Source: a virus
Taxonomy: Duplodnaviria > Heunggongvirae > Uroviricota > Caudoviricetes
Strand: one strand, 5' to 3'
Virus record (IMG/VR): IMGVR_UViG_3300031521_000016
Location: 99,895 to 140,106 of that record
Length of the DNA: 40,212 bases
A model generated the notes under the pieces. The model was given only the letters and a program-made list of their open reading frames with translations, had not been told where the DNA came from and searched no databases. Below, in pieces: positions 16,591-31,140 of the stretch (position 1 is the stretch's first letter; every line of letters starts with the position of its first letter). The translations under genes and the position numbers were made by a program.

Positions 16591-16945
16591 TTTCTGTAAA
16601 ATTCTTTAATGATTCATCATTCATTGTCTCAATAGGATATTTCATAATATATGCATCCATTATGATCTGTCTTCTGCTTGCTGCCGCCATAGATTCATAA
16701 TTGTCTACACGATAAGATTGTAACCAAGCATCTTGGGTTTCTCTAACTTCTCTTACTATGTCGTAAAATTTTTCAAGTTCTTCATCATTATCGAATTCTA
16801 ATGTAAATGAACCATCATCGATTATATTAATCTTCTTTACGATGCCATCCTTTGAATGTTCTTTTATAAACTTTTCATACTCTAAACGAGTAGTTTTTGC
16901 TATTTCGTTTAGAGCTGCAGTCTTTTCAGATATATACGCTTTCAT
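16574..16945 (-). CDS. hypothetical protein
   Basis: 123-aa ORF coupled to polymerase gene. Confidence 0.65.
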   Translation of the reverse strand: MKAYISEKTAALNEIAKTTRLEYEKFIKEHSKDGIVKKINIIDDGSFTLEFDNDEELEKFYDIVREVRETQDAWLQSYRVDNYESMAAASRRQIIMDAYIMKYPIETMNDESLKNFTENEYKD

Positions 16946-18126
16946 TAGAATAATTGTGTTGATGTTACAAGTTTTGCACTAATAGCTGAGAAGCCCATAG
17001 CTTCGACGAATCTATTTAATGGAGATATGATAGACTTGTTAAATTGAATATCGTGGTCGATAGGAGGTGCAATTTCTATTGGGAACTGCCCAGGTTGAAA
17101 AGCAAATACATTTTCTTCGTCACGTTTACCTTTTGCCACATAGTACTTAACTTTATCACCAGTTCTAATCAAAGGATATTTCCTTTTATACTTCGAGTTT
17201 GATACTGTAAAGTTATAGATAGCTGCAGCTCTAACGTGAATTGGACATCCTTTTTCTAGTACAAGTTTTTCTTTGTCTTGTAGTACAAACTTTTCATAAT
17301 CTCCAATTGAAGATGCCATAGAAATCTCTTCGATATCTTTAAGCTTATATTCTTCTTTATGTTTACGCAGAATACTTGTAAATTCACTGATAGAAAAATC
17401 ACGTTTCTTGTCTAAGATATATCTTAACATAGACATTAATGTAGTTCTAACGTAAATAGATGAAGAAGATTGAACAATTTCTACACCTTTTGCTGTTATA
17501 TGACTTAAACTGTCAATATCGATACCTGGGTCTTTCCATATTGGATCATATACATACTTCTTTTTTCCTAACCAAATACCTGATGCTGATATTGCTTCAA
17601 GTTCAAAGTTTTGAATATTTGTAGTTCCTGATTTCTTGGCATATAGTTCAAAACACATGTTTAGATATTCCTTTAAGAATATGTCATATATTCTTTTTAT
17701 GAAATCGGTTGGAGAACCTGGCCAGTTGCATTTTGATATGATCTCTTCGAATACAACATAATTTGAATCCGTATCGATATAGAGAACTGGAGCTAAATCT
17801 ATTTTTTGTACTTCAGTTATGCCGAGTTTTTCATGCAATTTAGTATCAAGATGCCAAAACTCCATAAAGTATCTGTTGATTACCTTTTCGGAATATTTGA
17901 TTAAATCTTGGCCTTGTAAAGTAACAGCTTCTGCTACTGCAGTATTATAGAAGATAAACCATGGTGAACCAGTGGCTCCATAAACTGAATTAATGAAAAT
18001 CTTTAAAGCCTGTTCACGGTTCATGTAGAAATTGGCTAAATCTTCCATTCTCTCTATTTCCGCTTCGAGTTCTTGTTTTGTTACGTTATTTGGGTCTATC
18101 TGACACCATTTTAAGTTTTCTATCAT
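16945..18126 (-). CDS. polB: family B DNA polymerase, C-terminal subunit (fingers P helix, palm, thumb; gp43B-like)
   Basis: Motif B KIFINSVYG, motif C YIDTDS, KKKY, KGVE; no exonuclease or motif A. Confidence 0.93.
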   Translation of the reverse strand: MIENLKWCQIDPNNVTKQELEAEIERMEDLANFYMNREQALKIFINSVYGATGSPWFIFYNTAVAEAVTLQGQDLIKYSEKVINRYFMEFWHLDTKLHEKLGITEVQKIDLAPVLYIDTDSNYVVFEEIISKCNWPGSPTDFIKRIYDIFLKEYLNMCFELYAKKSGTTNIQNFELEAISASGIWLGKKKYVYDPIWKDPGIDIDSLSHITAKGVEIVQSSSSIYVRTTLMSMLRYILDKKRDFSISEFTSILRKHKEEYKLKDIEEISMASSIGDYEKFVLQDKEKLVLEKGCPIHVRAAAIYNFTVSNSKYKRKYPLIRTGDKVKYYVAKGKRDEENVFAFQPGQFPIEIAPPIDHDIQFNKSIISPLNRFVEAMGFSAISAKLVTSTQLF

Positions 18127-18147
18127 TGTAAATTATTTTTCTCTATA

Positions 18148-18173
18148 GTTTTAGAGGGTAATTCATAAGGTTC
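18148..18173 (-). promoter_or_regulatory. bipartite promoter-like motif GAACCTTAT-N10-CTAAAAC
   Basis: Upstream of polB C-terminal gene. Confidence 0.55.
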
Positions 18174-18180
18174 ATTATCG

Positions 18181-18291
18181 GTGCTATAACTAGACTCGAA
18201 CTAGTAGTTTTGGAGTTTCCAAATTGGTATATTCCTAGAAATTATATGTTGACTATAAATCCCGTTATTCAACTTTCACCACATATAGCAC
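18181..18291 (-). tRNA. atypical tRNA-like element, 8-bp acceptor stem, long variable arm, predicted CUA anticodon
   Basis: GTGCTATA/TATAGCAC acceptor; ACTAG-TTCGAGT-CTAGT T-arm; TTTGGA-AAC-TCCAAA variable arm; TATAAT-TTCTAGG-AATATA anticodon arm with one mismatch; oversized D region; followed by CGA, not CCA. Confidence 0.65.
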
Positions 18292-18293
18292 TG

Positions 18294-19256
18294 TTACTTA
18301 TTTCGTTTTCCAAAATATGCATTTAAACTTTCGCCCTTCATACTTCTGCCGCCTTTCAGACTTTGAATATCTTCATTTTCAAATGGATCGATTAGATAAT
18401 CTAAGTTCAGACCAGCTTTTTCGTAGAAAAAGTCATCGTATCTATCTCCCCAAATATTGAAGAATACATTTATGATACCGCCCATGTAAATAGATTTTTT
18501 ACCCATTGCTTTTATATGAGTGCCTAAGAACATTGAATATGAAGCGCATGATAAGAATGCGATGTCAAAATCGATCTCTTTAATATCGTTCAGTATACGT
18601 TGACACTCTTCGTGCCAATTATTTGTTGAAATATTGAGACTTTCTTTTGTATCAGATGGTGTGCTGTAAGTTATAGGTGTGTTATAAGTCAACAATTCAA
18701 TATTAGGGAATTGATAGTTTAAATAAAGTTTGTCAATTCTCTCGAATTGATACTGTATACTTTTAGAAAAAGGACTTATTATGAGAATTTTCTTGTCTTT
18801 GCCCCAAATGGAGAATGACTGTAGAAATGGCTTAATCTGTTCGATGAATGCGTATTGATACTTATCTTTTCCTATAGACATGTACTGTAAGAAGTTTTTA
18901 TCTTCATGATTAAAGTTTCTTGTTTCAAACTGATATATGAGATGACTTCCTGCATATGACATATCGTCTCCATCTTTGTAGAATGATATCATATCTTCGA
19001 GATATTTTCGGAAATTCTCTTTCCGCTCATCATGTGAACCAAAATCGAAATACCCATTATAATGTCTTACAACGTCTAGTTTATGTTCTAACCATACTGG
19101 ATTATCTATCAGATTTTTATTACTGAAATATTCTACTATAGCCATATAGTCCGAGCCTCCTATTCTACTGAAAAAATAGGGTCTATCTTTTGACATCAAT
19201 GTCGTAAAATTTTCTATAGCTCTATCTGTATTGTAATCATTATAAATGTTATCCAT
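18294..19256 (-). CDS. GT-D fold (DUF1792-like) glycosyltransferase-related protein
   Basis: SRIGGSD; KKILIISPF; DFDIAFLSCASYSMFLGTHIKAMGKKSIYMGG...IWGDRYD. Confidence 0.65.
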   Translation of the reverse strand: MDNIYNDYNTDRAIENFTTLMSKDRPYFFSRIGGSDYMAIVEYFSNKNLIDNPVWLEHKLDVVRHYNGYFDFGSHDERKENFRKYLEDMISFYKDGDDMSYAGSHLIYQFETRNFNHEDKNFLQYMSIGKDKYQYAFIEQIKPFLQSFSIWGKDKKILIISPFSKSIQYQFERIDKLYLNYQFPNIELLTYNTPITYSTPSDTKESLNISTNNWHEECQRILNDIKEIDFDIAFLSCASYSMFLGTHIKAMGKKSIYMGGIINVFFNIWGDRYDDFFYEKAGLNLDYLIDPFENEDIQSLKGGRSMKGESLNAYFGKRNK

Positions 19257-19303
19257 GTTTTTTCTTTTATAGAAACTTTACCACTATAATTCTGTGAACA
19301 CAC

Positions 19304-19332
19304 AAATGGCCACTAGAACTTAGTGGCCATTT
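19304..19332 (-). terminator. intrinsic terminator
   Basis: AAATGGCCACTA/TAGTGGCCATTT 12-bp stem just after stop of 19339..19641. Confidence 0.75.
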
Positions 19333-19338
19333 ATTTTG

Positions 19339-19641
19339 CTATCCTACGATTACGCTTAAATTATAAGATGTTTCAGACAATGAAGTATTAACGTTCTCTA
19401 TTCTATATGCTAAAGAATGTAATGCCTCCATAAAATTATTCGAATTAACGGTCTCAATAGGAGCCATTGCTCCTCGTAAATCTTTCAACATAGCAACTTT
19501 ATCGCTGATATTAATAGCTAATTTTTCATTTGTTTCAATAGCATAAACTAAACGATTTACCAATTTAACAAATTCTGGTAATTCTATTTCGGCATTTTCT
19601 TTCAATTGTTTAGTATTCTGTGTTCCAGTTTGATTATTCAT
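19339..19641 (-). CDS. hypothetical coiled-coil protein
   Basis: 100-aa helical ORF. Confidence 0.65.
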   Translation of the reverse strand: MNNQTGTQNTKQLKENAEIELPEFVKLVNRLVYAIETNEKLAINISDKVAMLKDLRGAMAPIETVNSNNFMEALHSLAYRIENVNTSLSETSYNLSVIVG

Positions 19642-19657
19642 AGTAAGTAAAGTTTTT

Positions 19658-20389
19658 TTATTCTACTTTTCCGATAGCGATAGTACTATCTGATTCTAAT
19701 GATTTGAAAATAACTTTGTTTTCAAGAATGAAAACTTCACTATCTTCTTTATCTACGAATCCAAAGTGTGTCTTATAAAAGGTGATAGTTGTATCTTCTT
19801 TTACAGTTACACCTGGCAAATTCAAATCAAAAGCTTTACCTGCGAAAAAGATTTCTCCTCCTGTTGAGTAAATTTTAAGACTGTCATTATCAGAGTCAAT
19901 AGAACATAATGAAGAGATTTTAGTAAGTGTATCTTTATCGATACGGAAACTGAAAATAGCTGATGAAGTATCAGTAATTTTAGCTGCCAAGTCTTTATCG
20001 ATATACTTGAATAGAGAAGGACTGGCACTTGGAAAGTTGAATTTCAAACTCTTATTGTAAATCTTAAGCTGTGTAGCAGTTTCTTCACCACCGACTTTTT
20101 CAGATGTTACCTCGAATTTTACATCATTTTCACCAAGATGCTTGAATGTCTGAATAAAATTATCTACCGCAAACATACCGATTTTTACATCAGTAGCTTT
20201 TATAGGATTGAAAATTTCGGTCAAATCAGTTGATGAAATTTTTACAACAGCTTTATCTGGTGTATGAGTTTTTGCAATAAACTTGTTATTGCTGATTTCT
20301 AAGAGAAGAGTTTTCTCTATCGATGAGAACCTCTTCAAATATGCGGAGAAGTTCGCAGTAGAATGTAAATCTAAGATTTGTTTTGACAT
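19658..20389 (-). CDS. probable DNA polymerase sliding clamp (gp45-like)
   Basis: 243 aa, two-repeat alpha/beta pattern (FSAYLKRFSSI; IDKDTLTKISSL), replication-gene context. Confidence 0.6.
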   Translation of the reverse strand: MSKQILDLHSTANFSAYLKRFSSIEKTLLLEISNNKFIAKTHTPDKAVVKISSTDLTEIFNPIKATDVKIGMFAVDNFIQTFKHLGENDVKFEVTSEKVGGEETATQLKIYNKSLKFNFPSASPSLFKYIDKDLAAKITDTSSAIFSFRIDKDTLTKISSLCSIDSDNDSLKIYSTGGEIFFAGKAFDLNLPGVTVKEDTTITFYKTHFGFVDKEDSEVFILENKVIFKSLESDSTIAIGKVE

Positions 20390-29497: not shown

Positions 29498-29761
29498 CTA
29501 TTCTACCAATTTCTTTTTATACACATCAAATCTATCTATATGTCGTGGAAGCTCGCTAGTCAATAGTTTGAATAAACTGTATACTCCTGCTTCGTATGGT
29601 TCAAGATACGTTTTGCCTAAATTTTTGTAATAGACTTCCAAAAATTGTTTTGTACCGTAACATGGTATGGCACAGAGTGCTCTTGCTTCATCTTCCGATA
29701 AAGTAAGAGTCACTGTTAATTTCAATTCAGATGTTGATTTTATGCTTGAAGTTTCCATCAT
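29498..29761 (-). CDS. hypothetical protein
   Basis: 87-aa ORF coupled to polB N-terminal gene. Confidence 0.65.
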   Translation of the reverse strand: MMETSSIKSTSELKLTVTLTLSEDEARALCAIPCYGTKQFLEVYYKNLGKTYLEPYEAGVYSLFKLLTSELPRHIDRFDVYKKKLVE

Positions 29762-31140
29762 TTTTCCTTTAGTAATTGTTTTAGTTGATCAACTTCTTTT
29801 TCTATAGCAAATCCACATTTTTTAGCTTCTTTACGTAATCCATAAAAGTTAGCAAGCATGGCTCTCATTAATGAATCTTTAGAATTATCGAATACTGCAC
29901 CTGAAGCAGTTTTGATCCAATTTTTGTCTTCTGGAATATCTATTCCTTTTCCCATAAATGATTCTGGAGATATATTCCATTGTCTCATAGTAGAAGGATA
30001 TAGTGATGCAAAGTCAAAAGTAGCTAAATATTGAAATAGTCCTTTTTTAGGGTCTTTTACATATGCACCTTCAAATGATTGATCTTTCGATCCTTTTTTC
30101 ACTTCTGCTATAACTCTTTTTCGTTTGTAGAACTCTCTAATCATGATAGCTTCTGTCATCCAAATCGGTGAGAATGCTTTTTGAGATTCTACTTGTGTAA
30201 CATTTCCTAACATTAAGAAAGTTTGAAGAGTCTTAATTTTTCTGTCAATTTGATACACCAAGTAAGTATCGACAGCATTGTAAAACATGTAAGTTTCTGG
30301 ATCGTTATGATACAAATCCATAAGTGATCCGTTATATTGAATTTTCTGAATACCCAATACTGCTTTACCTACGGTGTCAAGTTTAAAGTTATCTTTAATC
30401 TTTACTACTCTATCCCATTTCTTATACAAGTCCAAATAATCGACAACGATTTTATGCTGTGGTAATTGATCGTCGCCTTTCATTGTTCTACTTGGTGAAC
30501 ATGTAGAAGGATCAATATTCAATCTTTTACATCTGTTAATCAAGAACTTCCAGTCAAAGTTTATAAAGTTCCATCCTGTAATAAGTGGGGCTTCTCTGAA
30601 CCATTTACCGAATAATGTTATCAGTAATTCAGACTCTGATTTGAAATGAATATATTGAATTGATGCATTTGGATCGTAATCTTTTAAATGTTCTCTATAT
30701 CGTCTTTCGATATTCTGTTGTTGCTGAATAGTTAACTCTTTTGTTCCAAGTACAGTAGTGGCACCTCTTGAATTTACTAATGCTACTGCGGTAACTTTAG
30801 TAGCTGCTATAGCAGGATCGGGAAAATCATCTTCAACTTCAACCTCGATATCACAAAACCATGATTCAGGAGCATTAAATTCGTATATTTCTTTCAGATA
30901 TTCTGGACCTAAAGCAGTCATAAATTCTTCAATTCTGAATCTATTTAGCCAGTTAGCTCTAGTTTTCTTTACGGGCTTACCATCCCATGTATGATAGTAA
31001 GGATCTGCTCTTTCGGAACCTGCTAGTTCCCATTTGTACTTTTCAGTTCGTGGAATAGCAATATCTTTAAATGCTACTTTACCGTCTTTACCGAAATGTG
31101 ATACTCTTAATGTATCATTTATTTGTTCTATATCGATCAT
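29758..31140 (-). CDS. polB: family B DNA polymerase, N-terminal subunit (3'-5' exonuclease plus motif A; gp43A-like)
   Basis: ExoI CDIEV, ExoII GWNFINFDW, ExoIII YNAVD, motif A DFASLYPS; ends in first fingers helix. Confidence 0.93.
   Translation of the reverse strand: MIDIEQINDTLRVSHFGKDGKVAFKDIAIPRTEKYKWELAGSERADPYYHTWDGKPVKKTRANWLNRFRIEEFMTALGPEYLKEIYEFNAPESWFCDIEVEVEDDFPDPAIAATKVTAVALVNSRGATTVLGTKELTIQQQQNIERRYREHLKDYDPNASIQYIHFKSESELLITLFGKWFREAPLITGWNFINFDWKFLINRCKRLNIDPSTCSPSRTMKGDDQLPQHKIVVDYLDLYKKWDRVVKIKDNFKLDTVGKAVLGIQKIQYNGSLMDLYHNDPETYMFYNAVDTYLVYQIDRKIKTLQTFLMLGNVTQVESQKAFSPIWMTEAIMIREFYKRKRVIAEVKKGSKDQSFEGAYVKDPKKGLFQYLATFDFASLYPSTMRQWNISPESFMGKGIDIPEDKNWIKTASGAVFDNSKDSLMRAMLANFYGLRKEAKKCGFAIEKEVDQLKQLLKEK

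Follow-up and report, generated by a model that had tools for sequence, protein, structure and literature searches.

RNAs that resemble tRNAs and do not decode have been known in phages since the discovery of species 1 RNA in T4, and they are still unexplained. Species 1 RNA is the product of T4 rnaC, a gene of 139 nt (NC_000866 70908-71046). The gene, with the T arm CCGGG-TTCGAAT-CCCGG, is conserved among about 750 GenBank phages; its RNA lacks an anticodon function, and what it does is not known (PMC3014915, PMC9697503). In plant mitochondria so-called t-elements lie at the ends of mRNAs; these are non-canonical tRNA-like structures in which the T arm is conserved. RNase P and RNase Z cleave them, and C or CCA tails are sometimes added (Forner et al. 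2007, PMC1920247). The substrates of RNase P also include mRNAs of operons and structures that resemble tRNAs (PMC11143913). In phages with a tRNA(CUA), TAG has been recoded (PMC6784885). Here we describe a tRNA-like element in the Caudoviricetes record IMGVR_UViG_3300031521_000016 of IMG/VR. The DNA analysed, called the window below, is a stretch of 40,212 nt that makes up the final 40 kb of this 140-kb phage contig, which is rated 57% complete. An earlier note on the window had described the element as a non-canonical tRNA-like RNA with an amber (CUA) anticodon. The acceptor and T-arm half of this description stands, the specific identities attached to it (amber, Sec and His) do not, and we tentatively favour the view that the element is a non-decoding tRNA mimic. 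Its parts, the surrounding genes and the coordinates of both are collected in Table 1.

The minus-strand letters from 18291 to 18181 are exactly those of the earlier note. An 8-bp closing stem with no mismatch (GTGCTATA/TATAGCAC) is stacked on a perfect 5-bp T arm, which abuts the 3' strand of the acceptor-like stem, is closed by G53:C61 and has the canonical loop GTTCGAGTC (T54 T55 C56 R57 A58). In canonical tRNA numbering this corresponds to a 7-bp acceptor on a 5-bp T stem. The T and G that follow the seventh acceptor base correspond to U8 and R9, and a pyrimidine stands just before the T stem, at the place of Y48. The T arm is placed as a T arm in the alignments of both the Rfam tRNA model and a covariance model of our own, R2, described below. 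The hairpin TTTGGA-AAC-TCCAAA, the CTA at 18236-18238 and the trailer CGA after C73 are all present as noted, and the element thus encodes no CCA. The minihelix encloses an AU-rich interior of about 78 nt. The element takes up most of a gap of 167 nt between the stop codon of a glycosyltransferase gene (TAA, 18294-18296) and the ATG (18126) of the gene for the C-terminal half of the family B DNA polymerase (polB-C). Its 5' edge is 2 nt past the stop and its 3' edge 54 nt ahead of the ATG, so that it lies wholly inside one of the few long non-coding gaps. The composition of this gap is unremarkable.

The tRNA-like top half is not random. The whole 140-kb genome was scanned for T arms of Watson-Crick pairs (loop TTCRANN) that directly adjoin an acceptor of 7 bp; with all pairs Watson-Crick the element is the one case in the genome, compared with 0.02 cases per genome in dinucleotide shuffles. 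T-arm-like hairpins occur about 1.9 times per dinucleotide-shuffled genome and three times in the real one, and only one of these three, that of the element, has G53:C61. An 8-mer with a perfect complement 44-142 nt upstream is found at 0.30% of positions of the real genome. From the shuffle scan combined with these real-genome counts we estimate a chance expectation of about 5e-4 such strict modules per genome, and we therefore take the top half to be real. The expectation is lower still if the module must fit wholly in a non-coding gap.

A relative of this phage, G001 (238 kb), contains 12 ordinary tRNAs and, in addition, a pair of elongated tRNA-like genes, 121 and 132 nt in length. In these two genes the acceptor, D and T arms are perfect and 50-60 nt of other sequence replaces the anticodon arm. 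Their 5' motif is present in more than 120 IMG/VR contigs among the matches listed, in some of them with two copies. The resolved matches have a total length of 70-246 nt and a near-invariant frame (AGTCAGGTGGCGGAATTGGTAGACGC ... ACAGGTTCGAATCCTGTCCTGACTA) that includes the D arm, their interiors are hypervariable in length and sequence and have no sequence in common. The genes of this family, the AGTCAGG-frame family of uncultured phages, escape ARAGORN at its default, and one of them scores 34.9 bits with the Rfam tRNA model. R2 is a covariance model of the frame family in which the frame is conserved and the interior is free. When R2 was run on the window and on the 140-kb genome, the element was matched from end to end and was the sole significant match (22.3 bits, E about 1e-4). 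On the same model true members of the family reach 76-86 bits and an ordinary tRNA-Leu 26.6 bits. Further weak R2 matches of 18-22 bits, uncalled by default tRNA searches, are present in relatives, at G001:231699-231776 (-), G002:105540-105634 (-) and G003:85803-85858 (+).

Folding gives a less tRNA-like picture of the interior. In the predicted ensemble the closing stem has pair probabilities of 0.8-1.0, the hairpin TTTGGA/TCCAAA 0.7-0.97, the hairpin with the loop GUCAACA 0.5-0.7 and the T arm about 0.45. The cloverleaf drawn in the earlier note has a predicted energy of -14.8 kcal/mol, which is 7.7 kcal/mol above the minimum free energy (MFE) fold at -22.5 kcal/mol. In a near-optimal fold (-21.1 kcal/mol) the element forms a four-way junction whose connectors have the canonical lengths (2, 1, 3, 0). 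This fold has a 57-nt arm at the position of the D arm and a 15-nt mini-hairpin, which has no 7-nt loop, at the position of the anticodon arm; the mini-hairpin is the stem that had been read as a variable arm. The loop that had been called the best anticodon loop, with CUA, does not hold up, as its stem TATAAT/AATATA contains an A:A mismatch and has an ensemble pair probability of 0.00. Its CUA is taken up by the thermodynamically favoured AU-rich hairpin at 18237-18263. The amber register is also not unique, since other registers give the sense anticodons AUA and CAA: ARAGORN with relaxed settings proposes AUA with a 21-nt 'intron', and in the MFE fold the 7-nt hairpin loop GUCAACA would read as CAA. 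At the expected distance the element has no 5-bp anticodon stem that closes a 7-nt loop with U33 and R37. No D arm (3-4 bp with a loop of 7-11 nt containing G18 G19, from position 10) was found either, the candidates being limited to TGGT/AATA, with one G:U and one G:A, or GGTG/CAAC with a loop of 25 nt. The D region is left unaligned by both R2 and the Rfam tRNA model. The interior is without a usable D arm or anticodon arm.

ARAGORN, which the earlier note had named among its checks, and Rfam make no tRNA call for the element at default or gathering thresholds. ARAGORN at its default finds no tRNA gene in the window or in the whole 140-kb genome, and at Rfam gathering scores the element has no match. 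The Rfam tRNA model (RF00005) gives the bare element 12.8 bits, compared with a gathering score of 29, in a local alignment that is essentially the T arm; besides this match, permissive Rfam runs return noise only (MIR845, snR61, ToxI). We considered that the element might be a tRNA interrupted by an insertion. All internal segments of 3-55 nt were removed in silico and the 2597 resulting variants were submitted to ARAGORN at the default threshold. A tRNA was called in 35 of these variants, and in 25 of them it was a tRNA(CUA), obtained after the loss of 16-24 nt from the D region. This result looks positive, but it did not survive a control in which the acceptor and T arm were kept and the interior was shuffled (60 shuffles): 65-68% of the shuffles gave at least one call and 10-17% reached at least 25 calls with one anticodon. 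The interrupted tRNA was rejected on this control, and the CUA assignment carries no weight, because the interior, given the frame, is no more tRNA-like than random AU-rich sequence.

The genome likewise gives no sign that TAG is read through. TAG is an ordinary stop, as the earlier note had stated, and ends 24 of the 206 long open reading frames (ORFs) of the 140-kb genome. Read with the standard code the genome has a coding density of 0.904, and with TAG as a sense codon one of 0.898, and the frames beyond TAG stops are as short as those beyond TAA and TGA stops. Neither in-frame TAG codons nor a depletion of TAG as a stop was seen in the genome. The suggestion of a regulated amber suppressor is thus not supported: the CUA loop forms no stable arm, it does no better than chance in the fixed frame and there is no signal of TAG recoding or readthrough. 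Nothing supports the element as a working stop-codon suppressor. The comparison with tRNA-Sec and tRNA-His that the earlier note also drew holds for the geometry, as the 8/5 arrangement and G-1:C73 are present; it fails for the anticodon loop (UCA or GUG) and for a call by Rfam or ARAGORN. Of the traits of bacterial tRNA-Sec the element has the 8/5 geometry and a hairpin at the variable position, and a UCA loop, a 6-bp D stem and an Rfam or ARAGORN Sec call were not found. In the case of tRNA-His, GTG is found only at positions 10-15 and in no loop of the predicted folds.

The minihelix is flawless and the interior scores like shuffled sequence, this is the pattern expected if only the half that is recognised by tRNA-end enzymes matters, and it is on this ground that we argue for a function. 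We therefore tentatively propose that the element is a non-decoding tRNA mimic, that it is processed by RNase P and RNase Z and can receive a CCA end, and that it acts as mRNA punctuation or as the source of a released small RNA. The functional part would be the acceptor/T-arm minihelix, with 7 or 8 + 5 stacked pairs and a canonical T loop. The element would be co-transcribed with the surrounding minus-strand genes and the minihelix recognised by host tRNA-end enzymes. RNase P would cut at the 5' edge, 1-3 nt past the glycosyltransferase stop, and RNase Z or exonucleases would trim at C73, to which a CCA-adding enzyme might then add a CCA tail. Processing of this kind, which is how plant-mitochondrial t-elements are handled, would part the mRNA of the inserted gene cassette from that of polB-C and set free an RNA about 110 nt long, with whatever effect on expression this may have. 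In favour of this proposal, the minihelix module is rarely expected by chance, the element stands wholly in a non-coding gap just past a stop codon, R2 picks out the element alone in the window and the genome, and the elongated genes of G001, which lack a normal anticodon arm, and the layout of T4 rnaC provide precedents. The phage also encodes a candidate for the last step, a CCA-adding-like enzyme, and the element itself has no encoded CCA. This enzyme is a 254-aa class II nucleotidyltransferase encoded outside the window (genome 73025-73789, L209:526-1290, minus strand), with a match of 62 bits to the PolyA_pol head domain and partial matches to CCA-adding enzymes. It coexists with no canonical tRNA gene in the 140 kb, as judged by ARAGORN.

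The earlier note had suggested that the element controls the adjacent polB-C gene. Relatives were reached through polB-C (39-80% identity), 16 from IMG/VR and three closer ones from assemblies, and the element is absent from all of the approximately 20 relatives examined. Their gene order is kept: topoisomerase, small ORFs, an ORF of 243-253 aa and polB-C. In several of them (L016-L020, L027) the stop of the 243-aa ORF overlaps the polB-C start (TAATG), and the direct abutment of the two genes in many relatives marks the ancestral state of the junction. The junction between the 243-aa ORF and polB-C (window 18127-19657) is an insertion hotspot with contents that vary by phage. It holds a different, unrelated 243-aa ORF in L002/L013 (L002:2252-2983), a short ORF with a GIY-YIG-like N-terminus in L003/L015 (L003:2807-3004), a degenerate trace of that short ORF in L004/L021 (L004:2904-3000), two ORFs, one with a faint NUMOD3 match, in L068, and a terminator plus gap in L069 (2305-2500). 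Because about 20 relatives lack it, and with the upstream stop often overlapping the polB-C start, the element is not a conserved regulator of polB-C. It may still act in cis, on the processing of a transcript that now continues into polB-C.

Homologues were searched for more widely. Three exact or degenerate patterns in IMG/VR gave no matches, or chance matches in coding DNA only, and blastn against GenBank phages gave noise only. One pattern in JGI metagenomes had 19 chance matches, none with a T arm. The T-arm plus acceptor pattern matched none of 185,579 species genomes, which thus yielded no donor tRNA. R1, a covariance model of the single sequence, had no match beyond the element in its own genome or in the records of four relatives, and in 15 loci it gave noise only (E above 0.3). 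Two other copies (JGI 3300031722 and 3300028864) come from the same phage and are identical.

Several of these results weigh against a functional tRNA mimic. With no relative carrying the element there is no conservation or covariation to draw on, and the three copies on record are identical. The whole element is not more stable than its shuffles (fold z = -1.0 to -1.6) and the pair probability of the T arm is low. No D-loop GG lies within a D arm to form an elbow. The R2 score is at the level of an ordinary class II tRNA and far below that of true family members. So young an element could be neutral.

In this neutral case the element would be a relic, a tRNA or tRNA-like gene that was brought with the cassette or made beside it, whose body has decayed and which has no present function. 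We regard this as somewhat unlikely. An orphan that is absent from the relatives and stands in a junction that collects insertions is what a relic would look like, and the same is true of an interior that ARAGORN treats as it treats shuffled sequence, of the absence of a D arm and of the low Rfam score and the silence of default ARAGORN. Decay should, however, strike the 26 paired and 7 loop bases of the minihelix equally, yet all are perfect. No source tRNA with such a T arm and acceptor is present in the species genomes searched, and homologues of the cargo gene are not found beside tRNA genes. A resemblance that arose by chance in AT-rich non-coding DNA appears still less probable. The genome has only 31% G+C and T-arm-like hairpins are found in its shuffles, the T-arm plus acceptor scan gave two clearly spurious matches in the genome once G:U pairs were allowed, and the fold z-score is unremarkable; very many windows were surveyed, and rare coincidences are bound to appear. 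By the chance estimate the strict module is nevertheless rare, the more so inside a non-coding gap, and U8, G9 and Y48 are also correctly placed.

It is also conceivable, though in our judgement unlikely, that the element serves the new junction as a different signal in cis, at the RNA or DNA level, with an incidental match to the T loop. It could be a structured 3' end that shields the glycosyltransferase mRNA against exonucleases, a leader that affects the translation of polB-C, or a polB-C promoter region. Its location at a gene junction, the terminator and gap of L069 at the same place, the promoter-like hexamers inside the element (GTGAAA-N16-TATAGT) and the fact that its most probable pairs are those of the long-range 8-bp stem and the inner hairpins would all suit such a signal. 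Promoter-like sites are, however, fewer than in shuffles (7 compared with 10.2), no U-tract follows the stem, the ATG is not sequestered by an element that stops 54 nt short of it, and the exact tRNA geometry (T arm abutting acceptor, U8, G53:C61) is left unexplained. We think it very improbable that the element, its oversized D region notwithstanding, decodes as a functional tRNA, whether as an amber suppressor with CUA or with a sense anticodon in the AUA or CAA register. The tRNA(CUA) calls among the deletion variants, the U33 and R37 of the loop UUCUAGG, the CCA-adding-like enzyme and the suppressor tRNAs of recoded phage genomes (PMC6784885) would favour it, but the shuffled-interior controls, the mismatched and improbable CUA stem, the lack of a G18 G19 D loop, the competing registers with their different anticodons and the use of TAG as a stop all speak against it. 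To our knowledge, moreover, bacteria have no machinery for excising a D-region insert of this kind. Finally, once host RNase P and RNase Z had excised it from the replication-gene operon and the small CCA-adding-like enzyme of the phage had given it a CCA tail, the element might work in trans. As a tRNA mimic that lacks an anticodon it could, for instance, sequester a host factor or a defence system directed at the acceptor/T-arm half of tRNAs; we consider this improbable, as we do the accompanying idea that the element is a newly born member of the phage class of tRNA-like RNAs, caught just after its acquisition. Among these explanations a non-decoding mimic processed within the mRNA is the one that we favour.

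The phage is T4-like, with topoisomerase II subunits and a split PolB, and almost all of its genes are on the same strand. The element stands at the 3' end of a lineage-specific insert of 1.5 kb, which further contains a 100-aa ORF, a hairpin with a promoter-like site and the glycosyltransferase gene. Homologues of the glycosyltransferase (144, the nearest with 59% identity) are found in sugar-epimerase (sugar-nucleotide)/GT2 clusters, and no tRNA-like element or tRNA gene is present beside those inspected. Transfer of the element together with the glycosyltransferase was considered and rejected, as the homologues inspected are not followed by tRNA-like DNA. The hairpin of the insert (AAATGGCCACTA...TAGTGGCCATTT) is perfect and comes directly behind the 100-aa ORF with its TAG stop; the promoter-like site stands between this hairpin and the glycosyltransferase gene. 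This arrangement of terminator and then promoter resembles the PeSLs of T4-type phages. A repeated regulatory cassette of the PeSL kind (PMC2839356, PMC4122927) was rejected for the gap that holds the element, because the sequence of this gap occurs only once in the genome.

The family B DNA polymerase is encoded by two separate genes, 11.6 kb apart. The C-terminal half alone matches a PHROG family of C-terminal halves, and many metagenomic relatives have a stand-alone C-terminal half of about 392 aa. The polB-C leader (18127-18180) has no Shine-Dalgarno sequence, which is also true of two relatives compared by eye. A short A/T-rich leader motif (ATAATTTACA / TATAATTTGT) is common to the window and L002, and a small hairpin, CTCTA-N6-TAGAG, is present 20 nt upstream of the polB-C ATG.

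Table 1. Parts of the tRNA-like element, neighbouring features in the window and elongated tRNA-like genes of the relative G001
Feature	Position	Strand	Remarks
tRNA-like element	18181..18291	minus	111 nt, G-1 to C73
Acceptor-like 5' strand GTGCTATA, then U8 G9	18284..18291	minus	pairs with 18181-18188; pair probabilities 0.79-1.00
AU-rich hairpin GGGA-U-UUAUA-GUCAACA-UAUAA-U-UUUC	18237..18263	minus	in MFE and centroid folds; pair probability 0.5-0.7
6-bp perfect hairpin TTTGGA-AAC-TCCAAA	18209..18223	minus	pair probability 0.68-0.97; not significant alone
T arm ACTAG-TTCGAGT-CTAGT, G53:C61	18189..18205	minus	loop 18194-18200; pair probability 0.41-0.48
Acceptor-like 3' strand TATAGCAC	18181..18188	minus	trailer CGA
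polB C-terminal half	16945..18126	minus	Pfam PF00136, phrog_1918
GT-D-like glycosyltransferase, 320 aa	18294..19256	minus	cargo gene of the insert; weak Pfam and NCBIfam GT-D matches
13-bp palindromic hairpin, terminator-like	19304..19332	.	after the 100-aa ORF
100-aa ORF, no family	19339..19641	minus	first gene of the insert; TAG stop
Conserved 243-aa ORF	19658..20389	minus	abuts polB-C directly in many relatives
polB N-terminal half	29758..31140		PF03104
Elongated tRNA-like gene of G001	211307-211439	minus	L060:13307-13439
Elongated tRNA-like gene of G001	235875-235996	minus	L061:18075-18196

The element can now be set beside the systems described above. With bacterial tRNA-Sec (8/5) and tRNA-His it has in common the 8+5 pairs and the G-1 paired with C73. 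With the Lak megaphages (Devoto et al. 2019, PMC6784885) it shares an over-long phage tRNA-like gene in which a CUA can be drawn in a loop. Lak phages, however, recode TAG and have many canonical tRNAs, whereas in this genome TAG is a stop and there is no canonical tRNA in 140 kb; the Lak inserts sit in recognisable tRNAs, whereas the body of the element is unrecognisable as a tRNA. With the plant-mitochondrial t-elements it shares a T arm within a non-canonical tRNA-like structure, and like them it adjoins the ends of mRNAs. The t-elements belong to an organelle and their ends have been mapped experimentally, whereas the element is known here from its sequence.

Like the genes of the frame family, the element consists of an acceptor, U8 G9 and a T arm around a long non-tRNA interior, with a total length of about 100-140 nt. 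The frame family has a near-invariant frame and a textbook D arm of the Leu/Ser type (GCGGAATTGGTAGACGC), whereas the element has neither. The four-way layout of T4 rnaC (closing stem, long arm, hairpin and T arm, at more than tRNA length) is also that of the element, with a T arm and closing stem around non-tRNA arms. T4 rnaC lies in a tRNA cluster, folds with z = -4.7 and is conserved, whereas the element lies alone between protein genes, has z of about -1.3 and is not conserved. Homology to T4 rnaC or to the elongated genes of G001 was rejected, as no sequence similarity beyond the T loop was found between them and the element. The element thus fits the architecture yet belongs to neither the rnaC family nor the frame family. 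At present it is a single unconserved sequence that is weakly supported within a known kind. If it is processed, it would be a case of a bacterial virus that accommodates a newly gained gene in an operon already in place by means of tRNA 'punctuation', and a minimal, young example in which to ask what tRNA mimics do. Compared with the other non-decoding look-alikes of phages, it is unusual only in that it stands by itself among the protein genes of an operon, bordering a freshly inserted cassette, in a phage with a CCA-adding-like enzyme.

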